IMG/VR virus record: IMGVR_UViG_3300009059_000716
Span: 30,823-94,822 of that record
DNA from: a virus
Strand: one strand, 5' to 3'
DNA length: 64,000 nt
This document shows, piece after piece, positions 22,777 through 36,840 of the stretch (the stretch's first letter is position 1; every line of letters begins with the position of its first letter). Under the pieces are notes generated by a model. It did not search any database, was not told where the DNA came from, and was given only the letters and a program-made list of their open reading frames with translations. The translations under genes were made by a program, and so were the position numbers.

Positions 22777-22805
22777 GGTATAATTAAAAAATGATAATAA
22801 AGGTT

Positions 22806-24023
22806 ATGAAAAAAATTATTTTAAGTCTAAGCATTCTTTTTATAGTTAGCTGTACAAAAGATTCATTTACAGATACTGAACTTGAAAAAGTAATTGACAC
22901 AGTACCTATCGCAGATAACCCATTTAGTGTAACCTATACACCCGATTATACGAAACCTTCTTACTATACCAGATTGCCATTTCCAGAAAATGTAAAAAAT
23001 GGTACATATAGAGAGTTTAGCAATTGGCACCCTCCTCTAGAAGCTGTAGTTTTAGACTACGATAAAGATGGTTACTTAGACATTATAGACAATCAATCAG
23101 ACTACGGGGTATTTAGAAGAAACAGTATACTATTTCTAAAAGGTAATTCTTCTGGTAAGTTAGATATTGATAGGGAGAACTCATATAAACATACTGGTCT
23201 CATTCATGGGCGGAAAGGTCTTGTAGGTGATTACAATGGAGATGGATGGCCAGATGTATTTTTTATTGGACATGGATACGATGTAGTAGACGGAAATCCA
23301 AGAGATGAATACCCCATAATGCTCCTTAATAATCAGGGGAAAGATTTTGAATATAGAGCTTTTGAATCAGTAGTTGGTTTTTTTCATACGGGTGCTAGTG
23401 GAGATATAGATAACGATGGAGATTTAGATATACTAGTAATTGACGGTACTAAAGGAGTTAGTAATTCTTATATCTTTATCAACGACGGAAGTGGTAACTT
23501 TGAAAAGAAAACTTTAGATCAATATTCGTCTATACCTAATAATCTCTATGATTCATTTTTCCAAAAATGGACTGTGGAACTAAAAGATATAGACAACAAC
23601 GGGTACTTAGATATTATAATAGCTGGTGCACCGGATATGTATGATAGTACACCGCCTACTATAATGTTGAATTCTGCAAATGGATTTACCAGTAAAATTG
23701 AACTACCAAGAGAACCTGTATATAAATTAGTTGTAGATATAGACTTTTATGATTTTGATGGTGACGGGATAGATGAGTTAATACTAAACAGAACACCTTT
23801 AAATTATATATCTTATAAAGTTACTATTCATAGTTTAACTAGTGACGAGTACTTAACCACTACCTACTTCAATAACAGTGAGTATACAGGTCAGACTTCA
23901 GATAAATGGATGTATTGGATTTCTATCATTGAAAAAGATGGGGAACTATATTTAAAGGGAGACGATATGTATACTCCACATGAATGGATTTTTGAAGATG
24001 GAAAGTTTAAAAAAATAAAATAA
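22806..24023 (+). CDS. FG-GAP/VCBS-repeat beta-propeller lipoprotein
   Basis: aaggttATG at 22806; MKKIILSLSILFIVS-C lipoprotein signal; DYDKDGYLD, DYNGDGWPD, DIDNDGDLD, DIDNNGYLD, DFDGDGIDE repeats. Confidence 0.85.
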   Translation: MKKIILSLSILFIVSCTKDSFTDTELEKVIDTVPIADNPFSVTYTPDYTKPSYYTRLPFPENVKNGTYREFSNWHPPLEAVVLDYDKDGYLDIIDNQSDYGVFRRNSILFLKGNSSGKLDIDRENSYKHTGLIHGRKGLVGDYNGDGWPDVFFIGHGYDVVDGNPRDEYPIMLLNNQGKDFEYRAFESVVGFFHTGASGDIDNDGDLDILVIDGTKGVSNSYIFINDGSGNFEKKTLDQYSSIPNNLYDSFFQKWTVELKDIDNNGYLDIIIAGAPDMYDSTPPTIMLNSANGFTSKIELPREPVYKLVVDIDFYDFDGDGIDELILNRTPLNYISYKVTIHSLTSDEYLTTTYFNNSEYTGQTSDKWMYWISIIEKDGELYLKGDDMYTPHEWIFEDGKFKKIK

Positions 24024-24422
24024 ATGATAAAAGGAGTAATTGCCGGAAACTTTGACGTAATGCATCCAGGCTACATAAAGATGTTTAAAGAAGCAGCAGC
24101 AAATTGCGACTGTTTAGTAGTCTTACTTCATACTGACCCTTCTATTGAACGCCCACATAAGCTTAAACCTATTCTATCTATAGAAGAACGTAAAGAGATG
24201 TTGTTTGAATTAAAATCAATATGTGGCATACTTACGTATACTTATGAAGAACAGCTCTTAGACTTACTAAAAATGGGGGAGTTTGATGTAAGGTTCCTTG
24301 GAGATGATTATAAAGGTAAGCCTTTTACTGGAGACTATCTAAACATTCCTATTTATTATTTGAATAGGGATCACGGGTGGTCTACTACAAAGTTTAAAAA
24401 AATGATAGCTAAAACTGTATGA
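24024..24422 (+). CDS. Cytidylyltransferase-like (TagD/HIGH family) nucleotidyltransferase
   Basis: GNFDVMHPGY, ERKEML, LGDDY, WSTT. Confidence 0.85.
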   Translation: MIKGVIAGNFDVMHPGYIKMFKEAAANCDCLVVLLHTDPSIERPHKLKPILSIEERKEMLFELKSICGILTYTYEEQLLDLLKMGEFDVRFLGDDYKGKPFTGDYLNIPIYYLNRDHGWSTTKFKKMIAKTV

Positions 24423-24608
24423 TAATACAGGAAAAGATTTTAACCCCTCACCTAGCTACAGAAGTTACTTCCGGAAAACGTTTAGTACTCGTATAATGTT
24501 CTTAAGACAAGAAAACTTACAAATTAAAAGTGGATTAATTTGAATCTTCTTATTAGATTACAAAACATACCTATATTTATATTAAATAAAGCTTTATAAC
24601 TTATAATC

Positions 24609-26813
24609 ATGAAAGGAACCCTTTTTTCAACAGATTTTGTTAAAGACTCTAATGGAAACTTAAGATTGCTTGAAATCAATACAGATACTGCTATTGTTTC
24701 TTCTGCAATCAAACAATTAGACTTTACAGGATTTAAACAAGTATTAGAAAGTAATTCTATTACAAAAGTAAAGACAATCCATAAACTATATCAAGAAGAT
24801 ATCGTAGAAGCATTAAAAGCATACTTAGATGCAAATGTACCTTCAGTAAACTCTTTTGAAAGTATAGTTGAAGATAGCAACACTATTTATCCTACATCTG
24901 TAGAAGATGCAGCAGATACCTTTATCTTAAGGTTAGCTTATGATGAAGCTGCATTATTAGATAGTGAATATGCTAAAAACACACACAATATTCTAAAACT
25001 ATTCAGCGACAATGGGCAAATTAGTTCAACAGTTGGGTATTATTATGCTGGAGGCGGTAGTATAGAAGACCACCTTACAAGAGATTTTAATGCTGAAAAC
25101 GTTCCTGATATTTTAGTTAAAAACTTGAACACTACTTTAGGAGAGCCGATTGAGTTCTTTAAAATAGGTCAATCAAGTAAGACAGCTGAAGATAGATTTG
25201 CTGATGTATTCGATATGTTAGATGATACTAAAATTGCTATGAACTTCTACAACGATGAAGCAGCAGCAAAAGTAGAATCTTTTAGAACATTACACATAGT
25301 ATACGGAAGCGACCTAAACGTTATCGATGTAGCAGGATTTAAATCTTCAGCTATATTAGATAAACCAGCTTCTCTATCAGTAGTAGATGAAGATATAGTA
25401 ACGAAAGTAGATGTAAAGCACTACCATGAATTAACTACTACATTACCTAGATTTGGAGTAGGTTCTAACTACGGAGGTATCTTTGAAGAAGAGTTTATTG
25501 TAAAAGCAGACGGTACGTTAGTACCTATTAAAGACGCTACAGTAGGAGATTCCTTTAAATCATACTTTATTTCAGGTTCACCCGATACAGACATTGAATC
25601 AGAATATCTAGCATGGACTTACCCAGGATCTGAATTACCTAGTGGTTCTTACGCTACAACTTCTACTTTAGTAAACAACTTAGAAGTAGGTTTATTCTAT
25701 AATATGATCTTCCACGTAACTTTACAAGACGGAAGTGATTTTAGAGCAACAGGAAACTCTCACGTATTAGTTTACGATGTACAGGCAGACTTATTAAAGT
25801 ATGTTGCAGTAAACTATCTATCATCAGATAAACATAAATTAATATCTGCAGGAAATGGATTAGTAGATATTACAGGAGTTGTTTGTGAGATATTAGATGG
25901 GGAGTATTCTTCTCATATTCTAGATATGGAAATAGCCGATACATTCTTCATCGGTGATGGACAATTAAGCGTTAAGATTGTTGCCCACAACTGCTTCCCA
26001 GCTGGTACTAAAATTACAATGGCTGATGGTTCAGTCAAAAACATTGAAGACGTTAAGGCAGGAGATAAACTATTAACTATCAACGAAAATACTTTAGAAC
26101 AATCAGAAGGTAGAGTTGGAGATGTATTAGTTAAGAAAGATAGATTGTTATTCGAATTCAAATTAGAAGACGGAGGAGTAATCAAATCTACATCTCATCA
26201 CAGATATTTCGTAAAAGAAAAGTCATGGTTAACTGCTCAAGATATTCAAGTAGGAGACGTATTAGTTAGATCAAACGGAGATGATGTCAAAGTAGAATCA
26301 ATTGAACAGCACGAAGGTGAGTTTGAAGTATTCCATATTATTGATGTAAAAGATAACCATACTTACTACGCAGAAGATATTTTAGTTCATAACTATAAAG
26401 CTTGTTTCATCGCTGGAACAGAGATTACTTTAGCGAATGGAGATGTTAAAAATATCGAAGATGTAGCAGTAGGAGAAGAAGTTCTTACTTACAACGAAGA
26501 TAAAAAAGAAACAGAAGCAGGAGTAGTAGGAGACTTGAAGAAACATGAAGTTCAATCTGTAATCAGATTAACTCTTGATAATGAGAATGTAATCGTAACA
26601 ACTGAAGAACATCCTTTCTATGTAGTAGATGCAGGATGGGTAAAAGCAGGAGAATTACAACCATTAGATGTTTGTTTAAAAGAAGACGGTAAAGAATCTC
26701 TAATCTCTTCAGTAGAGGTATTAGAAGAGAAACATGAAGTATTTAACTTACTAAGCGTTTCTGAAAACCATAACTTCTTCGCTAACGGAATATTAGTTCA
26801 CAATAAAAAATAA
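24609..26813 (+). CDS. Circularly permuted ATP-grasp-like domain fused to three tandem Hint (intein-like) domains
   Basis: N-terminal DFVKDSNGNLRLLEINTDT; Hint1 aa290-461 (Gly at position 1, ends VAHN), Hint2 aa462-595 (CFPAGT..TSHH..LVHN), spacer YKA, Hint3 aa599-732 (CFIAGT..TEEHPF..LVHN), then KK-stop. Confidence 0.8.
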   Translation: MKGTLFSTDFVKDSNGNLRLLEINTDTAIVSSAIKQLDFTGFKQVLESNSITKVKTIHKLYQEDIVEALKAYLDANVPSVNSFESIVEDSNTIYPTSVEDAADTFILRLAYDEAALLDSEYAKNTHNILKLFSDNGQISSTVGYYYAGGGSIEDHLTRDFNAENVPDILVKNLNTTLGEPIEFFKIGQSSKTAEDRFADVFDMLDDTKIAMNFYNDEAAAKVESFRTLHIVYGSDLNVIDVAGFKSSAILDKPASLSVVDEDIVTKVDVKHYHELTTTLPRFGVGSNYGGIFEEEFIVKADGTLVPIKDATVGDSFKSYFISGSPDTDIESEYLAWTYPGSELPSGSYATTSTLVNNLEVGLFYNMIFHVTLQDGSDFRATGNSHVLVYDVQADLLKYVAVNYLSSDKHKLISAGNGLVDITGVVCEILDGEYSSHILDMEIADTFFIGDGQLSVKIVAHNCFPAGTKITMADGSVKNIEDVKAGDKLLTINENTLEQSEGRVGDVLVKKDRLLFEFKLEDGGVIKSTSHHRYFVKEKSWLTAQDIQVGDVLVRSNGDDVKVESIEQHEGEFEVFHIIDVKDNHTYYAEDILVHNYKACFIAGTEITLANGDVKNIEDVAVGEEVLTYNEDKKETEAGVVGDLKKHEVQSVIRLTLDNENVIVTTEEHPFYVVDAGWVKAGELQPLDVCLKEDGKESLISSVEVLEEKHEVFNLLSVSENHNFFANGILVHNKK

Positions 26814-26818
26814 GAATC

Positions 26819-26959
26819 ATGCCAGTAGTATATAAATCATTTGATTACCAAACAGAAGCAAGAGACAAAGCAGTAGAAGCAGCAGATGTAACTACAAAAC
26901 AGCAAATGAATGACATCGTTGCAAGCTTTGTAAATTTATTTAAAGCTAAACACCTATAG
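26819..26959 (+). CDS. 46-aa small protein (not in ORF track)
   Basis: MPVVYKSFDYQTEARDKAVEAADVTTKQQMNDIVASFVNLFKAKHL; fills the gap between Hint gene and oxygenases. Confidence 0.7.
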   Translation: MPVVYKSFDYQTEARDKAVEAADVTTKQQMNDIVASFVNLFKAKHL

Positions 26960-26973
26960 TATACAGCTTTAAA

Positions 26974-27501
26974 ATGGTTACTGAAAAAACGTTATTCTCA
27001 CAACAAGATTGCGAATACATTAAATCATTTTATGATGTAGCAATTGAGAAGAACGAAAAAGGTTTCAAAATAAACTCAGACAAATACCCACAAGGTATAG
27101 CAATAAAAGACGGTTCAGCAGTATCATGGAATGAAATCCAAAACGATACTCTGGACCGTTTCTTGTTAAGTAAGCTTATAGAGTTAGAAATAACTTCACT
27201 CCCTTATCTTAAGCTAATGAAGTACGGAGTCGGAAATGAAATGAAACCTCATAGAGATTTTCAGGCATATGATACAAGTACAATCTATAGATCAACAACA
27301 ATACAGCTAACCAGTCCGGAAGATTATAAAGGAGGAGAGTTATATGTAGAAGGAGTAAAAGCTAGTAATATACAAGGAACTGCAATTATGTTTAACCCCT
27401 ATCAAACACATTGGGTTACAGAGATTACTGAAGGAGAAAGATGGGTTATAGTAGCTTTTTTAGAAGAGTTTCATTTTAATACTAAGAAAAGTTTATTATG
27501 A
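26974..27501 (+). CDS. 2OG-Fe(II) oxygenase
   Basis: HRD..YKGGEL..HWV..GER; ends KKSLL. Confidence 0.9.
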   Translation: MVTEKTLFSQQDCEYIKSFYDVAIEKNEKGFKINSDKYPQGIAIKDGSAVSWNEIQNDTLDRFLLSKLIELEITSLPYLKLMKYGVGNEMKPHRDFQAYDTSTIYRSTTIQLTSPEDYKGGELYVEGVKASNIQGTAIMFNPYQTHWVTEITEGERWVIVAFLEEFHFNTKKSLL

Positions 27502-28007
27502 TTGATCAAAAAGTATTATTTACAGCAGAAGAATGTGAGTGGTTGAAATCCGCACAATCAACTATATACCCACCAGTAGAAGATACTAAATGGTGGGAGT
27601 CACATCGTATAAATTATAGATTTAAAAATATACAAGAAAGAGAAGTATTTGAACAGTCACGTTTAGATTTTGTTGCTAGTAGAGTTAAACAATTAGGAGT
27701 GAAATCTGTTCCTACATATAAAATTATACATTACGGTAAAGGTGGATTCTTCGCCCCTCACATAGATTCAGGGAGAAACCATCCAATTAGAAGAAAAACA
27801 TTATTAGTGCAGCTATCCTCTAAAGAAGATTATTCTGGAGGTGATATGTATGTTAAGGGTGTACTTTTTGAAAAGACAATAGGCAATACAATATTATTTG
27901 ATTCGTCATTAACTCATGAACTAAAATTAATAGAAGGAGGAAATAGATTAGTTATGGTCACATGGTTATCTATTTATAACCTTGAGAATCCTAAAACTTT
28001 ACTATGA
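27498..28007 (+). CDS. 2OG-Fe(II) oxygenase
   Basis: HID..YSGGD..HEL..GNR; ends PKTLL. Confidence 0.9.
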   Translation: MIDQKVLFTAEECEWLKSAQSTIYPPVEDTKWWESHRINYRFKNIQEREVFEQSRLDFVASRVKQLGVKSVPTYKIIHYGKGGFFAPHIDSGRNHPIRRKTLLVQLSSKEDYSGGDMYVKGVLFEKTIGNTILFDSSLTHELKLIEGGNRLVMVTWLSIYNLENPKTLL

Positions 28008-28528
28008 TAACAGTTAAACATAACGTACTGTCGGATAGAGAGGTAAACAAGCTACTCACTTTATGGTATGATACAAAACCTAACCATATTATAACAGACG
28101 GCTATAAGTATAATATTGAAGCAGTAGAGATTTTAGACTACATAGATAAATTAAAACTTTCGTATTCTTTTCCAAAAGAACACTATAGGGACTTTATACT
28201 ACAGACAATAGATGAAACACATAGCAAAGCTCCTAATCATGACAAATATCACCGACATGAAAATGAATGGACATATGTTATGTACTTAAATGATAACTAT
28301 CAAGGAGGAGAAATAGAGTTTACTAATGGAACTATCATTAAACCACAAGTAGGAGATGTTATATACTTTTCACCTGAAGAAGGACATAGAGTTAAACCCC
28401 CATATGATTTTACCGAACAGTATTTTAAACACAACGGTAAGAGTATTCTTATGAATAAAAGATGGTCACTTGTCGGATTCATGAATTCTGACATTATAAA
28501 CGAGAATAAAAAAACATGCTTAATTTAA
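28004..28528 (+). CDS. 2OG-Fe(II) oxygenase
   Basis: HRHE..YLNDNYQGGE..HRV..R; ends KKTCLI. Confidence 0.85.
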   Translation: MITVKHNVLSDREVNKLLTLWYDTKPNHIITDGYKYNIEAVEILDYIDKLKLSYSFPKEHYRDFILQTIDETHSKAPNHDKYHRHENEWTYVMYLNDNYQGGEIEFTNGTIIKPQVGDVIYFSPEEGHRVKPPYDFTEQYFKHNGKSILMNKRWSLVGFMNSDIINENKKTCLI

Positions 28529-29220
28529 TTTATACCTATTCAATCAAACTTAGCGGTAACAGTATAGAAAAATACGTTAAACTCCTAAATAAAGCATACC
28601 TACATAACAGTAAGTACCATTCTATAGTACTATATACCGATAGGGAGACATTACCGTATGTAGAAGATATTTTTCCGGAGATAAGATTAGTAGAAATAGA
28701 CAATCTTCAATTTATGGATGATATAAAAATGAAGATTATAGATAAACTTGAAAGCAATAGTATACTTACAGATTACGATATCTTTTTAAACTCACCTTTA
28801 ATACTTCCAGACAATTTTGATGTGTATGTAGATAGAAGAGGTAAGGTAAAAGAGTTAGTACTGTACAGCCATTTGTTTGAACATTTAAGACATGAAGGTT
28901 ATGGTATTTTTACTAAAGATGTAAATACCTATTTGAATGTAGGTATATTAAAAATCAACAGTGAACATAAAATAAAAGCTATTAAAGACGCATATTACGC
29001 TTTAAGAAATTGGTATGTGGATAATAAAATAGAAGAAAGAACTCAATTTACATACCATACAGGAGTATGCCCTTCTATAGCAGCTTTACAGTACAATTTA
29101 GATAAAATAGCTACTATAAGTAACTGGAAAGTATGTGAGATGAAAAAATACAACAACTACCATCATTTAGTTGGAGAAGATAAATTTAAAGAAATAAGCA
29201 CAAAAAATACTGTGATTTAG
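28516..29220 (+). CDS. DxD nucleotide-diphospho-sugar transferase-like protein (DUF6734-like)
   Basis: VLYTD, K, TDYD, NVGI, YHHLVG; ends KNTVI. Confidence 0.6.
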   Translation: MLNLIYTYSIKLSGNSIEKYVKLLNKAYLHNSKYHSIVLYTDRETLPYVEDIFPEIRLVEIDNLQFMDDIKMKIIDKLESNSILTDYDIFLNSPLILPDNFDVYVDRRGKVKELVLYSHLFEHLRHEGYGIFTKDVNTYLNVGILKINSEHKIKAIKDAYYALRNWYVDNKIEERTQFTYHTGVCPSIAALQYNLDKIATISNWKVCEMKKYNNYHHLVGEDKFKEISTKNTVI

Positions 29221-29251
29221 TTGTCAAAACAGTATATTTTTCATATATTTA
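29220..29251 (+). promoter_or_regulatory. Bacteroidota-like phage promoter
   Basis: GTTG-N20-TATATTTA. Confidence 0.6.
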
Positions 29252-29280
29252 GATATATTAATCTATTAAAGACAAATGTT

Positions 29281-29469
29281 ATGAACAAATTATTTTTTGT
29301 ACCTTCAACCAAAATTAACGCAAGAATTGCCGACACTGTTGTTACAGGACAGCATATTACAGTAGAAGGGTTAACTTACCAAATGGTATCAAAAAGACCA
29401 CTTGGAAGAAGAGTACTAAGACGTCTAATTAACGAATCTACAAATACAAAAATTGTAATCTATTCATAA
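29281..29469 (+). CDS. 62-aa hypothetical protein
   Basis: gttATG at 29281; the TTG at 29221 lies inside the promoter. Confidence 0.6.
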   Translation: MNKLFFVPSTKINARIADTVVTGQHITVEGLTYQMVSKRPLGRRVLRRLINESTNTKIVIYS

Positions 29470-29473
29470 CCAA

Positions 29474-30262
29474 ATGAAAGCAATATATAGCTACAAAATA
29501 TTCTCAGACCAACGTAAACCTTTAGATAAAACGTTTTGGAAACTAGCTGCATATAGTGTTAAGTCTGCTTCTAAGTATTATAGAACAGTTCTGTACTCCG
29601 ATGAAGAAAGTGGAAAGCTATTTGATAGACACGGAATTTATTTTGATGAGTATCATATTCTTCCTGAAATAGAAAATTATAAAGGAAGGGTTTATAGTGT
29701 ACCAAAAATATATGCAATGATTGCTGAGAAAGAGCCATATATTCATTTAGACTTTGACTCTGTAATACTGGAAGAGATTATATCTACACACACTATTACA
29801 TACGCATATACAGAAGTTGATTTAATAAATCTAGCAGGGTATGCTAGAATAGATTACGTATTTGGAGGATATGTAAGACCTTATCGAGACTTGTTGGTTG
29901 ATATATTTAAGGATGATATAATATATCCTGATTTTAATATAGTACCTAACCATTCTTTTCTGATGGTAAAAAATCCAACTATTGTTAGAGAGATTTACAA
30001 AAGAATACTCAGTAAAATACCAGCGGACATATTAGAAGAAGTAAGCCCTACATTATTAGAGCAATGTCTACTTTACCTATACTTAAAAGAAAATCAAACA
30101 GATATAGGATACTTAAGTTGGTATTCAGCAGAGAAGTTTTTAGAACGTGAGTTCGGTTCTTATAAATTTATACATTTACCATTTTACAACGAACCGGAAA
30201 AGAAAGAAGAAGTAGAGTTTGTTCTTAAAAAACTTGAAGAACAATTCGGCCCAATCGAATAA
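29474..30262 (+). CDS. DxD transferase-like protein (DUF6734-like)
   Basis: VLYSD, SVPKIYA..EPYIHLDFD, EQ, FIHL. Confidence 0.7.
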   Translation: MKAIYSYKIFSDQRKPLDKTFWKLAAYSVKSASKYYRTVLYSDEESGKLFDRHGIYFDEYHILPEIENYKGRVYSVPKIYAMIAEKEPYIHLDFDSVILEEIISTHTITYAYTEVDLINLAGYARIDYVFGGYVRPYRDLLVDIFKDDIIYPDFNIVPNHSFLMVKNPTIVREIYKRILSKIPADILEEVSPTLLEQCLLYLYLKENQTDIGYLSWYSAEKFLEREFGSYKFIHLPFYNEPEKKEEVEFVLKKLEEQFGPIE

Positions 30263-30277
30263 CAGTTATACCTTATT

Positions 30278-30628
30278 ATGAAAATTAAAGAGCTACTTTT
30301 AGGAGCCGTGTTATTTACTCTCGGACAGAGCATAGCCTGGTACCAGACTAATGGGCAATTTATAAGTAGTTGGATAAAAGAACATCCGTTACTTATGTCG
30401 GCAATAGTTGGAGTACCTGTTGGGATGTGTTATATTTACGGAACAACGTACACAGTAAGTGCTTTTGAAGGAGAATTATGGCCGGCAAGAATTATAGGAT
30501 TTACAACTGGTATATTTTCCTTTACAGTTCTTACTACACTACACTTAAATCAGACAATCGACCTTAAGACAGGTGTCATACTTAGTCTTGCAATTATAAT
30601 TATTTTACTACAAGCTTTTTGGAAATGA
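30278..30628 (+). CDS. Small 4-TM membrane protein
   Basis: Four hydrophobic segments. Confidence 0.7.
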   Translation: MKIKELLLGAVLFTLGQSIAWYQTNGQFISSWIKEHPLLMSAIVGVPVGMCYIYGTTYTVSAFEGELWPARIIGFTTGIFSFTVLTTLHLNQTIDLKTGVILSLAIIIILLQAFWK

Positions 30629-31509
30629 ATTTTTTAGATAGTCAATATCAAGACCTCCTCAAATACATTATTGAGAAAGGTCAAATAAAAGAAGATAGAA
30701 CCGGAACCGGAACATTATCAGTATTTGGTAGACAATTTAGACATGAGATGTCATTAGGCTTTCCTCTCCTAACAACAAAGAAGATAGCAGTCAAAACTAT
30801 GATGACTGAACTGAAATGGTTTCTAAAAGGAGATACTAATATCAAGTATTTAGTTGATAACGGTTGTAATATTTGGAATGGTGATGCTTATAAGAATTAT
30901 AGAAATAAGTTTGAACCAGCCCCTTATCAATTTACTCCAGATACAATGGAAGAGTTCATCAACAAAATCAAAACCGATGATGAGTTCGCAGAGGAGTGGG
31001 GTGAGTTAGGTCCAATATATGGAAAGCAATGGACTGATTGGAATGGTATAGACCAGATATTAAATCTTCTTAACTCAATAAAGAAGAACCCAAATAGTAG
31101 AAGATTGATGGTATCGGCTTGGAATGTAGGTGAATTACATGAGATGACATTACCTCCTTGTCATTACGGATTCCAGATAAATGTTAGAGGAGAGTATTTA
31201 GACCTAATGTGGAATCAAAGAAGTGTAGATACATTTTTAGGAGTACCTTTTAATATAGCCTCATATGGTCTGCTACTTAGTCTAATAGCGTATGAGACAG
31301 GTTATAAGCCTGGTTCTCTCATAGGATCTCTAGGAGATACACATCTATACACAAACCATATAGAACAGGCGAAGGAACAGATAAAAAGAACTTCATTTGA
31401 TCTTCCTACTCTTAAGATTATTTCATCTGATATTCTAAATGGAGAGTTTGAAGTAGAGTTTGAGAACTATATTTCACATCCTGCAATAAAAGCACCTTTA
31501 TCAAATTAA
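30625..31509 (+). CDS. thyA: Thymidylate synthase
   Basis: DRTGTGT, FPLLTTKK, LGPIYGKQW, SRR, LPPCH, QRSVD..LGVPFN. Confidence 0.97.
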   Translation: MNFLDSQYQDLLKYIIEKGQIKEDRTGTGTLSVFGRQFRHEMSLGFPLLTTKKIAVKTMMTELKWFLKGDTNIKYLVDNGCNIWNGDAYKNYRNKFEPAPYQFTPDTMEEFINKIKTDDEFAEEWGELGPIYGKQWTDWNGIDQILNLLNSIKKNPNSRRLMVSAWNVGELHEMTLPPCHYGFQINVRGEYLDLMWNQRSVDTFLGVPFNIASYGLLLSLIAYETGYKPGSLIGSLGDTHLYTNHIEQAKEQIKRTSFDLPTLKIISSDILNGEFEVEFENYISHPAIKAPLSN

Positions 31510-31510
31510 A

Positions 31511-31542
31511 GTTTGTAGTCTGAATTATTCTTCTTATATTAA
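31511..31542 (+). promoter_or_regulatory. Phage early promoter cassette
   Basis: GTTTG-N19-TATATTAA-GGTA. Confidence 0.7.
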
Positions 31543-31565
31543 GGTAGTTAAAAAAAGAAAAGGTT

Positions 31566-31931
31566 ATGCATTTAAGAACTACAAGAAGATTAGCTGAGAA
31601 GTATTTAAACAATTGTGAGAAAGTTTACGGATTAAGTAAGTTTCATGATAGCACTCCTTACATAGAGTTTCAACCTTATGTTCATTCTGTTTACACAGAA
31701 GATGATAATCCAATTGCAGAGTATATCTTTGACTATAATACTATTGTAATATACTATAAGAATATTCACAGTGCAGAAGATTTAGCTCAAACTATCGTTC
31801 ATGAATACCAACACTACTTACAATCACCAAGCTGGATGACTAGATACTATAATATGGGCTTCTGTTATTCAGACCATCCATATGAAATAGCAGCATTTAA
31901 TGAAGAGAAAAATTGGAAATTAGTTGCTTAG
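31566..31931 (+). CDS. Zincin-like metallopeptidase domain protein
   Basis: HEYQH..Q...HPYEIAA. Confidence 0.7.
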   Translation: MHLRTTRRLAEKYLNNCEKVYGLSKFHDSTPYIEFQPYVHSVYTEDDNPIAEYIFDYNTIVIYYKNIHSAEDLAQTIVHEYQHYLQSPSWMTRYYNMGFCYSDHPYEIAAFNEEKNWKLVA

Positions 31932-31979
31932 TTAAAGTACATTTCACTATTTATTAAGAACTAAACTAAACTAGAATAT

Positions 31980-32792
31980 ATGGCATGTGGTTGTGGAAGA
32001 TCTCCAGACGGATGTAGAGGCTGGCACTCTTTAACAGAAGAAGAATTCAAAGTAGAATATGATGCGTTTCTAAAAGAAAAAGATGGTATCTTAAGAGTAA
32101 AAGAGGTAGAACATTATACCGATACTCTATTCAAATTCAAGTTAACTAAAACAGACGAATATAAATTTAAGGCCGGACAGTTTACAATGTTAAATGTAGA
32201 CGGTGCACCAAAAAGAGCTTATAGCTATACAAGTGGTCCGGAAGATGATTTTATAGAGTTCTATAGTATAAAGGTACCAAATGGACCTCTTACAAGTAAG
32301 CTTCAGAAGATACAAGTAGGAGACTTTGTAAATGTTTCTCCAAAAGCTACTGGAACACTCATAGTAGATAATCTTACAGAAGGAGACGATTTATGGTTAC
32401 TTGCTACAGGAACTGGAATTGCACCATTCATTAGTATGTTATGTGATCCTTTAACTTACGACAGATTTAAAAACATTCATGTTGTATGGTCGGTAAGAGT
32501 AAAAGAAGAACTAGACGCTTTTCATGATTGGTTAGGAAGTATAGGAATAGATTATATTCCAATTGTTACTCGAGATGATAGATGGGAAGGAGAGAAAGAA
32601 AGAATAACAACTCTTATTCAAAGAGGAGACATAATGAAAGATAGTACTCCAGATAATGATAAAGTAATGCTATGCGGTAATATGGACTTCAACAAAGAGA
32701 TAAAAAATCTACTTGTTGACGAAAGAGGATGGGTAGAAGGTAATAGTAGACAAGCAGGATCATTTGCTTTAGAGAAAGCTTTTGTTGGATAA
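31980..32792 (+). CDS. fpr: Ferredoxin/flavodoxin-NADP+ reductase with N-terminal CDGSH-like Cys/His finger
   Basis: RAYS, GPLTS, ATGTGIAPF, MLCGN, EKAF; N-terminal CGCGRSPDGCRGWH. Confidence 0.9.
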   Translation: MACGCGRSPDGCRGWHSLTEEEFKVEYDAFLKEKDGILRVKEVEHYTDTLFKFKLTKTDEYKFKAGQFTMLNVDGAPKRAYSYTSGPEDDFIEFYSIKVPNGPLTSKLQKIQVGDFVNVSPKATGTLIVDNLTEGDDLWLLATGTGIAPFISMLCDPLTYDRFKNIHVVWSVRVKEELDAFHDWLGSIGIDYIPIVTRDDRWEGEKERITTLIQRGDIMKDSTPDNDKVMLCGNMDFNKEIKNLLVDERGWVEGNSRQAGSFALEKAFVG

Positions 32793-35641: not shown

Positions 35642-35820
35642 AGTTAGTATATACTCAAGAGACTATCAACTACATGGCTAAAATTAATCCTCAACTCATA
35701 GAAGATCTAGCCAAATACGGAGCACCAGAACCAGTCGAACTATTAGATGATAAGGGAACTATAATAAACAAGTACTATCTATATAATATTAATGAAGATA
35801 CTTCCGAACATATTAGCTAA
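35638..35820 (+). CDS. Hypothetical protein
   Basis: Coupled ORF. Confidence 0.55.
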   Translation: MKLVYTQETINYMAKINPQLIEDLAKYGAPEPVELLDDKGTIINKYYLYNINEDTSEHIS

Positions 35821-36322
35821 AGAATATGTTTCTTCTATACTTTCTAAACAAAAGCAGTTAGGGTATAAAGGAAGAGAATCATCTCCTATACATTTGAATT
35901 CTGCTATTGTAGAATGGAATATAGAAGGATATTGGAATAATGATGATGCAGTAGTACTTTCATTTGAAGATAAAGGCTTCGTATTTCTTCTATATACTTT
36001 TCAAAAGGATATAAACGGAACAGATAAACTCTACTGCGAAATAAGGCACATAGTAACATTAGAACAGTATAGAGGACAAGGTACCGGTAAGCAGTTAGTA
36101 GAAGCAACTGCAAAACACATGAAAGAGAGAGATTGTCAAATCTTAAAAGTCCTTTCAGATATTAAATCTAAAAACTTCTACATTAAAAATGGATTTGAGG
36201 TTTCCGGAATAACAAAGCACGGACTATCCTACTTCTGTAATGATATTACTTCTAGGAGAAATGTTTCAATGCCTGCTAGTGATTTTCCTTTTATGACTAA
36301 TTCTCCTAAATCAATATTATGA
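35792..36322 (+). CDS. GNAT acetyltransferase
   Basis: QYRGQGTGKQL, NFYIKNGF; ends PKSIL. Confidence 0.85.
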   Translation: MKILPNILAKEYVSSILSKQKQLGYKGRESSPIHLNSAIVEWNIEGYWNNDDAVVLSFEDKGFVFLLYTFQKDINGTDKLYCEIRHIVTLEQYRGQGTGKQLVEATAKHMKERDCQILKVLSDIKSKNFYIKNGFEVSGITKHGLSYFCNDITSRRNVSMPASDFPFMTNSPKSIL

Positions 36323-36840
36323 GAGGTATAATTAGAAATGTACTCAATCAATCTGATATAGACTCTATTTTTAAACTATATAATGAGTCTTCTAATATTG
36401 TTGAATTATATGGAGAGTTAAAAAATAGACATAACATTTCAAGTAATTTAGGAATGTTTCTTTTATCACATTTTACACAAAAAGAGTTTCAACCATTCCT
36501 TTCTAAAATTATACCTTCAATAGAAGCTAAAGAAAGAATTGAATTAGAAACTACTTCATGTAGGGTACTTAAATACACGAAAGATTGCTTTATTTCAAAA
36601 CATAGAGACATTAAAACTTCAGAAGCCAATTCAAGCCTTTCGGTAATAATACAGCTCTCTAATCAAGATGAGTACGTAGGAGGAAAAGCGATTATAGACG
36701 GAGAAGAAAGTATACTACAGCAAGGTGATTTAGAGTATTATACCTATAGTTACGAACATGAAGTTACTAAAATATTTTCCGGTTGTAGGTATGTTATTAA
36801 CTTACGAATTAATATCAAAAAAGATTCAACTTTAATATAA
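36319..36840 (+). CDS. 2OG-Fe(II) oxygenase
   Basis: HRD..YVGG..HEV..GCR; ends KDSTLI. Confidence 0.9.
   Translation: MRGIIRNVLNQSDIDSIFKLYNESSNIVELYGELKNRHNISSNLGMFLLSHFTQKEFQPFLSKIIPSIEAKERIELETTSCRVLKYTKDCFISKHRDIKTSEANSSLSVIIQLSNQDEYVGGKAIIDGEESILQQGDLEYYTYSYEHEVTKIFSGCRYVINLRINIKKDSTLI

Follow-up and report, generated by a model that had tools for sequence, protein, structure and literature searches.

The 64,000 nucleotides analysed here (hereafter the window) correspond to positions 30,823 to 94,822 of the 94.8-kb viral record IMGVR_UViG_3300009059_000716 and carry, between positions 24,609 and 30,262, a gene cassette headed by a 734-residue protein in which a putative ligase domain is fused to three Hint domains. 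We read the cassette as part of a phage-only module in which a two-subunit ligase acts as the hub for tailoring enzymes that are gathered by a shared C-terminal tag and work on a peptide or protein substrate, and we put the probability of this reading as a whole at roughly one half. The known roles of Hint domains lie in splicing, toxin release and cholesterol transfer, and that of ATP-grasp enzymes is the formation of amide bonds. Each of the domain types involved is known; what appears to be new is their fusion, a 46-residue subunit supplied in trans and a tag common to unrelated enzymes, since the literature and the family libraries gave us no description of an ATP-grasp–Hint fusion, of such a trans subunit or of a tag across unrelated enzymes. 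An initial annotation, made from the nucleotides alone, had listed in this segment an ATP-grasp-like protein with three Hint domains, a 46-residue open reading frame (ORF), three 2-oxoglutarate (2OG)-Fe(II) oxygenases and two DxD transferase-like proteins. All of them lie where it had placed them, and its remark that it knew of no described system with this architecture agrees with our own search of papers and family libraries. Every gene in the window is on the plus strand, to which all coordinates below refer, and the GC content is about 32%.

The 734-residue protein is encoded by the ORF at 24609-26813 (start MKGTLFSTDFVKDSNGNLRLLEINTDT), and its residues 1-280 (24609..25448) form the candidate ligase domain. 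Only structure comparison identified this domain, sequence searches having remained blank. An AlphaFold2 (AF2) model built from a 40-sequence alignment is confident over residues 1-272, with a mean predicted local distance difference test score (pLDDT) of 86 and a predicted template modelling score (pTM) of 0.81. When the model was compared with the PDB by Foldseek, 39 structures matched at E<=1e-3. The top matches (E 7e-7 to 2e-4, template modelling (TM) score about 0.4-0.46) were YjfC and YgiC of E. coli, glutathionylspermidine synthetase (GspS), glutathione and homoglutathione synthetases of eukaryotes and trypanothione synthetase, with a Foldseek probability of 1.00 for YjfC, GspS, the glutathione synthetases and YgiC. 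With VIA, an all-against-all aligner, 11 circularly permuted ATP-grasp enzymes rank first (Z 7.2-9.2, 190-228 residues aligned), followed by the ordinary ATP-grasps ArgX, RimK, Ddl and ITPK1 at Z 5-6. Since the permuted enzymes align from model residue 1-4 and the ordinary ones only from about residue 50, the comparison carries the signature of the permutation, and residues 1-290 are, on their predicted structure, a circularly permuted ATP-grasp domain of the GspS type, as the initial annotation had anticipated for residues 1-289. Conservation falls on the same region. The motif D9...E22-x-N24 lies within the first 27 residues, a segment that we take to resemble the strand-turn-strand of the ATP-grasp Mg site (x-x-D-h...L-L-E-h-N-T) of D-Ala-D-Ala ligase and GspS, and D9, E22 and N24 are invariant in alignments of 40, 15 and 9 sequences, down to 21% identity; D112, D118, Y121 and R226 are also invariant among members that are 21-25% identical. 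We have filed the domain as one that would work like a GspS/GshB-type ligase, without membership of a sequence family.

GspS, YgiC/YjfC and eukaryotic glutathione synthetase have both the fold and the permutation in common with the modelled phage domain, with the D...E-x-N strands coming first, and the enzymes of the GspS type use ATP to activate a small peptide at its C-terminal carboxylate, which they then couple to an amine. Against these enzymes the phage ligase stands apart in its lack of sequence similarity, in being about 100 residues shorter, with a helical layer that apparently comes from the 46-residue protein (see below), in having Ser for the Arg of the R-x-D motif, in its fusion to Hint domains and in its restriction to viruses. 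Among the permuted-type matches is also Cp1B (VIA Z 8.4), the ligase of the fungal E-64 pathway (PDB 9cjn), which works with an Fe(II)/2OG oxygenase toward a small amide product (PMC12568646). Cp1B differs from the phage ligase in being a free-standing fungal enzyme that acts on epoxysuccinate and has no Hint domain, small subunit or tag.

The family of the 734-residue protein counts more than 570 homologues in a collection clustered at 90% and 328 clusters at 50% identity, and 486 metagenome loci carry it. Among 185,579 species genomes of cellular organisms there was a single match, on a 2.8-kb contig of a metagenome-assembled genome, and blastn and tblastn searches of 50,697 phage records gave, among cultured phages, no DNA relative of the region and no protein relative of the N-terminal 450 residues. 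Judging from these sequences, the ligase-Hint family is virus-only, and its architecture occurs far more often than chance would produce, because it recurs in hundreds of independent contigs. The source of the window has a baseplate protein with 60.6% identity to its counterpart in Flavobacterium phage vB_FspM_immuto, and is therefore, by this sequence, a large aquatic myovirus. As hundreds of lineages of aquatic phages have the module and cells have it essentially never, it is probably a common but unrecognised part of phage infection biology.

For the analysis of gene order we gathered 95 loci and, with a threshold of 85% identity in the ligase domain, dereplicated them to 66 groups. The 46-residue ORF lies directly downstream (0-46 nt) of the ligase-Hint gene in 51 of the 54 dereplicated loci with room for it. 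In 30 of 34 loci a 2OG oxygenase starts no more than 3 kb downstream, and with the limit set at 5 kb the count is 30 of 31, so that the linkage of small ORF and oxygenases to the large protein proposed in the initial annotation is upheld across the homologues. No gene is as constant over the 66 loci as the ligase and its 46-residue partner. SET-domain proteins (often right after the small ORF), radical S-adenosylmethionine (SAM)/SPASM, SDR-like and DUF6734-like proteins and several proteins without a family also recur as neighbours, together with ordinary phage genes such as PhoH, dCMP deaminase, DUF932 and cytidylyltransferase. The toolbox of enzymes that clusters with the ligase gene over hundreds of phage contigs also takes in GNAT proteins and three families without assignment. 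A protease or an exporter conserved in the cassette was not found across the related loci.

What the enzymes of this neighbourhood share is their C-terminus. At least 8 unrelated families end in K-K-x-[LI]-[IL]-COOH, with K(-5) K(-4) [S/K/T/N](-3) [L/I](-2) [I/L](-1) as the consensus of the tagged families. Counted as members ending in two hydrophobic residues, the tag is present in 109 of 114 2OG oxygenases, 34 of 37 SET-domain proteins, 17 of 19 DUF6734-like proteins, 10 of 13 radical SAM/SPASM proteins, 9 of 13 SDR-like proteins and two families without assignment (13/17 and 14/16); the same count gives zero in the control families PhoH (0/11), cytidylyltransferase (0/11), thymidylate synthase (0/4), Fpr (0/7) and FG-GAP (0/6). 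The six ORFs of the contig that show the full pattern are the three oxygenases and the first glycosyltransferase A (GT-A)-type protein of the main cassette plus a second tagged pair 9 kb downstream of it (35792-36840), made up of a GNAT acetyltransferase (35792-36322, Pfam GNAT E 3e-10, ending in PKSIL) and a fourth 2OG oxygenase (36319-36840, PF13640 E 3.7e-5, ending in DSTLI and followed by a 225-nt gap to the next gene). In the AF2 model of the GT-A protein the tail is disordered, residues 229-234 having pLDDT <50. The tag also tends to go with the ligase when the question is turned round: cyanophage oxygenases in a genome without a ligase gene have no tag, and in a reciprocal search from SET, in which 73 of 79 viral loci were tagged, the loci with at least 4 kb of upstream sequence contained the ligase in 32 of 49 tagged cases and in 0 of 6 untagged ones. 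In the one complete genome checked (213.6 kb, L137 / L177) a tagged SET gene and a ligase-Hint gene are both present, about 70 kb apart, and the toolbox of tailoring enzymes therefore need not be contiguous; the other contigs checked were fragments, on which a missing match carries no weight.

Several other accounts of the tag were considered and set aside. Gene overlap does not explain it as a by-product, since many overlapping genes in the window's glycan operon are without it and since it is retained in 47 of 66 cases in which the next gene is >50 nt away; nor does AT-rich composition, as the contig's 137 ORFs include only 15 with two hydrophobic residues at the end, and the full pattern is confined to the six, all of them toolbox enzymes. 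How many intact Hint domains a locus has showed no clear relation to how many of its enzymes are tagged: over few loci, those with 1, 2 and 3 Hints had on average 5.7, 6.3 and 8 tagged ORFs. Sub-threshold PDZ matches of Hint B (E 0.003-0.04), which might have pointed to binding of the tails, were treated as a local resemblance around GD-x-L-L-x-I-N.

The tag might instead serve another receptor, for instance as a degron for a host protease, in docking to a clamp-like replication hub, or in packaging into the capsid or export, while the ligase shares the same hypervariable island of auxiliary genes and has a small-molecule substrate of its own, such as a polyamine or peptide conjugate. The nearest structural relatives of the ligase do act on small peptides and polyamines, short hydrophobic C-termini are generally known as protease or clamp signals, the islands also hold PhoH, dCMP deaminase and DUF932, and tagged enzymes can be found up to 70 kb from the ligase, some tagged SET loci having no ligase within 10 kb. 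However, ligase, partner and tagged oxygenase are near-universally adjacent, in genes that often overlap or are tightly spaced, the ligase and its partner are the most constant genes of all, and untagged SET proteins and cyanophage oxygenases occur where the ligase is missing. A separate receptor is for these reasons unlikely in our judgement. As for a clamp-binding motif, an idea suggested by the tails of phage polymerases, no replisome protein on the contig is tagged.

The second subunit of the proposed hub would be the 46-residue protein (26819..26959), to judge from its conserved position and from complex prediction. Its consensus is M..YK....NR....F..FKAKH[LS], with Y5, K6 and H45 invariant, and it is conserved along its full length, with no hypervariable core. 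We predicted its complex with residues 1-461 of the large protein, each partner with its own alignment, together with three controls. The interaction prediction score from aligned errors (ipSAE) was 0.84, 0.84 and 0.81 for the pair and 0.00 in all three controls; the runs share at least 98% of their contacts, and the partner is modelled with pLDDT 89-91. In the predicted complex, residues 3-8 of the partner, which include Tyr5-Lys6, pair with the strand 424-431 of Hint A, near the invariant H271/E274, and its C-terminal helix lies on residues 8, 10, 20, 23 and 225-231 and on the helix 128-140. These contact positions alternate with the catalytic D9, E22, N24 and R226, and the helix would therefore sit on the back of the catalytic sheet. 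Nearly all of the 46 residues are buried in the predicted interface, through about 130 contacts. The 46-residue protein is thus probably a subunit that clamps the ligase domain and Hint A together, and its helix looks like a structural layer that the ligase domain, which falls about 100 residues short of YgiC, receives in trans.

The initial annotation had seen in the small ORF a possible substrate for modification, and the position of the gene would suit a classical pathway for ribosomally synthesized and post-translationally modified peptides (RiPPs), in which the ORF would be a precursor that is bound through a leader-like strand and helix, modified at Tyr5-Lys6 or in KAKH[LS], and released. 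A small gene right after the ligase gene in 51/54 loci is what such a cluster would have, the invariant residues Y5, K6 and H45 are polar as modification sites would be, the N-terminal strand is predicted to pair with a β-strand of Hint A much as a leader peptide does with its recognition element, and enzymes of peptide-modifying types adjoin, SPASM radical SAM proteins included. The same gene is, however, conserved throughout where a precursor would have a hypervariable core, its product is predicted to be buried almost entirely, with the helix packed like a missing structural layer, and a conserved protease or exporter does not accompany it. A protein that is predicted as a buried subunit and is conserved in this way is therefore unlikely to be a RiPP-style precursor, and the RiPP-like pathway as a whole strikes us as unlikely too; Lys6 or His45 may nevertheless have a role in the chemistry. 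To our knowledge, no RiPP system has a C-terminal tag shared among its enzymes.

Two groups of known systems resemble this arrangement. In the LysW/LysX amino-group carrier pathway an ATP-grasp enzyme and a protein of about 50 residues go together and several enzymes act on a protein-held substrate, and ArgX-LysW was the best ordinary match of the ligase model (Z 6.2). LysW, however, is an acidic zinc-ribbon carrier with a C-terminal Glu, whereas the phage protein has no Cys/His zinc ribbon, ends in KAKH[LS] and is predicted to be buried; further, the enzymes of the LysW pathway are not known to share a tag and no Hint domain takes part. The scaffold-peptide pathways of the peptide aminoacyl-tRNA ligase (PEARL) type and the graspetides likewise combine a ligase with tailoring enzymes on a ribosomal scaffold, oxygenases and radical SAM proteins among them. 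The phage module differs from both in having no tRNA-dependent ligase and no hypervariable core, in that graspetide ligases are unpermuted, and in that release would come about by Asn cyclisation in a Hint domain and not by a protease.

In the window, Pfam sees two Hint domains in the large protein, at residues 454-597 and 598-732 (PT-HINT E 4.5e-29). They correspond to Hint B (residues 462-595, 25992..26393, PT-HINT E 2.5e-15) and Hint C (residues 599-732, 26403..26804, PT-HINT E 6.8e-16), both of which are above the Pfam cut-offs for PT-HINT, Intein_splicing and Hint. Hint B is an intact mini-Hint of the bacterial intein-like (BIL) type with Cys462, T528/H531 and His594-Asn595, followed by the non-nucleophile Tyr596, and its C1, T67, H70, H133 and N134 are invariant in our alignment A5; Hint C, likewise intact, has Cys599 and His731-Asn732, with Lys733 next. 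Between the two lies a Tyr-Lys-Ala linker (26394..26402), and after Hint C the ORF closes with Lys-Lys-stop (26805-26813). The nucleophiles Cys462 and Cys599 are invariant in homologues, and the terminal His-Asn pairs (H460-N461, H594-N595 and H731-N732) are kept in nearly all of them, one locus having Ala-Asn. By these features Hints B and C match the pattern of A-type bacterial intein-like domains. The classical intein is a different matter: no homing endonuclease domain is present in any of the Hints, each intact one being about 135 residues long, and there is no +1 nucleophile and almost no extein after the domain. Since the residue after His-Asn is Tyr596 or Lys733 in the window and mostly Lys/Arg in relatives, classical splicing is not expected. 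The same expectation, cleavage in place of splicing, follows from the likeness to the BIL and pretoxin-HINT domains (PF07591; 2lwy; the Tetrahymena BUBL Hint 6y75/6tmm), which also have about 135 residues, Cys1, TxxH and His-Asn with no nucleophile after. The phage domains differ from them in standing in tandem at the extreme C-terminus, with 1-8 flanking residues and no toxin or cargo to be released.

The third domain, Hint A (residues 290-461, 25476..25991), has no Pfam match even at E<=10. It was recognised with hhalign, in which its profile aligns with that of Hint B over the full length (probability 90%, E 1.6e-6), and with profiles of the PDB, where it matches the solved BIL/Hint domains 6y75/6tmm and 2lwy (E 2e-4 to 1e-3); on these profile matches it is a divergent Hint domain. 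It has Gly290 at the Cys1 position and a terminal His460-Asn461, with G290, H460 and N461 invariant or nearly so, and bears a conserved Ser/Pro/Thr-rich insert of about 35 residues with the loop S-G-S-P-D-T-D...L-P-S-G-S. With Gly in place of Cys1 and His-Asn kept, Hint A would be able at most to cut at its own C-terminus. Unlike BIL domains, it has lost the nucleophile and become a fixed part of an enzyme: the ligase domain starts at residue 1 in all family members, and ligase and Hint A together make up the constant core across the family. Beyond Hint A the relatives differ, with 1-7 residues, a Cys/Tyr-rich peptide or one to three intact Hints at this place; the minimal members of the family, of about 460 residues, have no intact Hint at all. 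In a distant clade (P0286, P0265, P0260), the His-Asn of Hint A is followed by a Cys/Tyr-rich peptide of about 25-30 residues with the pattern C-x-Y-C...P-C-G-x-Y-W-C-D...C, in one case with an intact Hint next. This peptide suggests that the position after Hint A may carry a releasable peptide.

The intact Hints seem to move. Hint C has 70-80% identity to the last Hint in lineages with only about 40% identity in the ligase domain, different Hint types occupy the Hint C position elsewhere in the family, and the linker after Hint B varies among homologues in length and sequence, usually beginning with or containing Lys/Arg. As their number varies and the last one swaps between lineages, the intact Hints look like mobile cassettes inserted in a short, Lys/Arg-bearing tail. 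The initial annotation had viewed the large protein as an autoprocessing polyprotein, but the intact Hints have the look of mobile inserts and not of designed parts. Self-conjugation is a further use to which such domains might be put, the Cys462 thioester or the Asn succinimide being resolved by an external nucleophile so that ligase and Hint A become covalently attached to a target such as a protein of the host or virion, a lipid or a glycan. Cys1 and His-Asn have indeed stayed invariant in the intact Hints despite the near absence of an extein after them, and Hedgehog and the ciliate BIL-flanked ubiquitin-like genes are generally known precedents, to the second of which the matches 6y75/6tmm belong. 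We hold this very doubtful, because members of about 460 residues exist without any intact Hint, and because domains that vary in number and move between lineages seem dispensable.

The tailoring enzymes of the cassette follow the 46-residue ORF closely, the successive intergenic gaps along the main cassette being 5 nt, 14 nt, -4, -4, -13, 0 and 4. The first three are 2OG-Fe(II) oxygenases, at 26974..27501 (prolyl 4-hydroxylase (P4H)/PKHD type, PF13640 E 1.2e-9, end KKSLL), 27498..28007 (PF13640 E 1.2e-9, end PKTLL) and 28004..28528 (PF13640 E 2.4e-8, end KKTCLI), and the window holds only one further copy of such an oxygenase in its 64 kb. All three match PF13640 above cut-off (E 1e-9 to 2e-8) and keep HxD...H...R, with H93, D95, H146 and R156 invariant in 25 sequences, and their profile is nearest to the PKHD hydroxylases, the bacterial and viral prolyl 4-hydroxylases and the mimivirus lysyl hydroxylase (E 2e-14 to 1e-6). 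Next comes, at 28516..29220, the first of the two DxD proteins (end KNTVI). Its AF2 model (pLDDT 89) gave 155 Foldseek matches at E<=1e-3, headed by GT6, GT8 and the UGGT catalytic domain (E 3e-5), and the protein has, on this model, a GT-A glycosyltransferase fold with the DxD motif after a hydrophobic strand. Both DxD proteins belong to one DUF6734-like family in which D86/D88 are invariant in 19 sequences, including the two genes of the window. In related loci the SET proteins are nearest, by profile comparison, to the KMT2 lysine methyltransferases. Taken as types, the oxygenases, SET proteins and GT-A proteins point to a peptide or protein substrate, perhaps at Lys or Pro, and not to DNA.

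That the cassette should be a DNA hypermodification cluster, in which oxygenases, glycosyltransferases, acyl- and methyltransferases and an amidoligase decorate phage DNA bases, is most improbable: phages are generally known to combine such enzyme classes for base modification, a thymidylate synthase homologue (30619-31509) and a cytidylyltransferase-like gene (24024-24422) lie near, related loci have dCMP deaminase and the oxygenase profile has a marginal Tet-like match (E 1e-3 over 44 residues), but peptidyl prolyl/lysyl hydroxylases (E 1e-14 to 1e-6) are much nearer relatives of the oxygenases than TET/AlkB, SET domains are protein lysine methyltransferases, and the thymidylate synthase matches its family strongly and in the ordinary way (E 9e-107) and occurs in only 8/66 loci.

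In the reading we prefer, that of a tag-served ligase hub, the intact Hints would cut themselves out after translation at N461|C462, N595|Y596, A598|C599 and N732|K733, by thioester hydrolysis and Asn cyclisation. The mature product would then be residues 1-461 plus the 46-residue protein, a two-subunit ATP-dependent ligase that would form an amide bond. This ligase would be the hub, and the tag would recruit the tailoring enzymes to it or to its substrate, or would present the C-termini of the enzymes to the ligase; the enzymes would add hydroxyl, glycosyl, methyl or acyl groups to a substrate that is a peptide or protein, contains most plausibly lysine or proline, and is positioned at the C-terminus of Hint A or close to it. 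One more specific version can be imagined, a protein-templated cycle of ligation, tailoring and release on the carboxylate of Asn461, which we regard as speculative and rather improbable in this detail. The ATP-grasp domain would add an amino acid (Lys is recurrent after His-Asn) to the free Asn461 carboxylate, tag-docked hydroxylases, glycosyltransferases and methyl- or acyl-transferases would modify the tethered residue, Hint A would free the product by Asn cyclisation, and the cycle might start anew. On this view the intact Hints would be mobile inserts whose self-excision exposes the Asn461 carboxylate. Such a cycle would explain why a ligase for C-terminal carboxylates is fused to a Hint limited to C-terminal cleavage, and why Lys recurs after His-Asn. 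If true, it would give viruses a new way of making small modified amino acids or peptides, and a Hint domain a productive use that is itself new. More broadly, the module may have proteins of the host or the phage as its targets or may yield a small modified peptide, and it offers a testable handle on the targets of many orphan 2OG oxygenases in marine phages. Protein engineering could also make use of such parts: a tag of five residues by which enzymes are gathered, a ligase dependent on a helix in trans, and mobile mini-Hints that cleave at their C-terminus.

Several points weigh against the hub as we describe it. For the ligase domain, residues 1-285 have no Pfam family at E<=10 and no PHROG match, and neither phmmer nor a profile search against the PDB gave the domain a match; the TM-scores are only 0.4-0.5, and VIA Z values of 7-9 can, according to the tool's own warning, arise without homology. 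The putative role of D9, E22 and N24 as Mg ligands is read from the resemblance of the motif to that of known enzymes, and where the classical R-x-D motif has its Arg this protein has Ser7 and distant members have Gly/Ser/Thr; the invariant R226 may substitute for this Arg, which stabilises the acyl-phosphate. The calibration of the complex prediction, in which 58 of 80 solved complexes and 2 of 110 mismatched pairs reach the same ipSAE mark, is only rough here, since custom alignments were used. The loci on which synteny was counted were all picked for containing the ligase gene. Finally, tagged enzymes can sit 70 kb from the ligase gene, and in 17 of the 49 tagged SET loci, most of them on fragmentary contigs, the ligase was missing from the 10 kb around.

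The remaining genes of the segment and its surroundings can be described briefly. Between the two DxD proteins lies a conserved ORF of 62 residues (29281..29469, cluster 11), whose ATG at 29281 agrees with its homologues; it has no Pfam or PHROG match, occurs in 15 of 66 loci and has the conserved end [IV]-x-I-Y-[SGK]. The second DxD protein (29474..30262) has a DFD motif and is without the shared tail; its DUF6734 match (E 8.9e-6) falls just under the Pfam cut-off, and its Atlas feature score to DUF6734 clusters is 0.98. The family of the first DxD protein likewise occurs in 15 of 66 loci, many of which have it twice. Directly upstream of the ligase gene, 24419..24608 holds the deletion remnant of a fourth tagged 2OG oxygenase, as seen by comparison with two relatives (L018 and L019) that have an intact oxygenase of 175 residues at the equivalent position. 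About 425 bp of the oxygenase interior have been deleted, and an N-terminal piece, a C-terminal HxxTxVTSGKRLVLV piece and a frameshifted IKSGLI tail are retained. The flanking genes are an FG-GAP repeat protein (410 residues) and the cytidylyltransferase-like protein (132 residues, 24024-24422) on one side (22791-24422), and the thymidylate synthase homologue and an Fpr-like FAD/NAD reductase on the other (30619-32792); none of them is tagged.

Two neighbours in related loci deserve mention. The commonest protein without a Pfam family is one of 231 residues (cluster 4, e.g. L094:9859-10554) that is absent from the window and present in 23 of 66 loci; about half of its members are tagged, and its motif G-C-S-H-T-E-G recalls SGNH hydrolases. 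The other is a tagged radical SAM protein (L070:1433-2506), recurrent in 12 loci, in which a SPASM-type Fe-S domain (residues 9-73) precedes the radical SAM core (residues 117-265), an unusual order.

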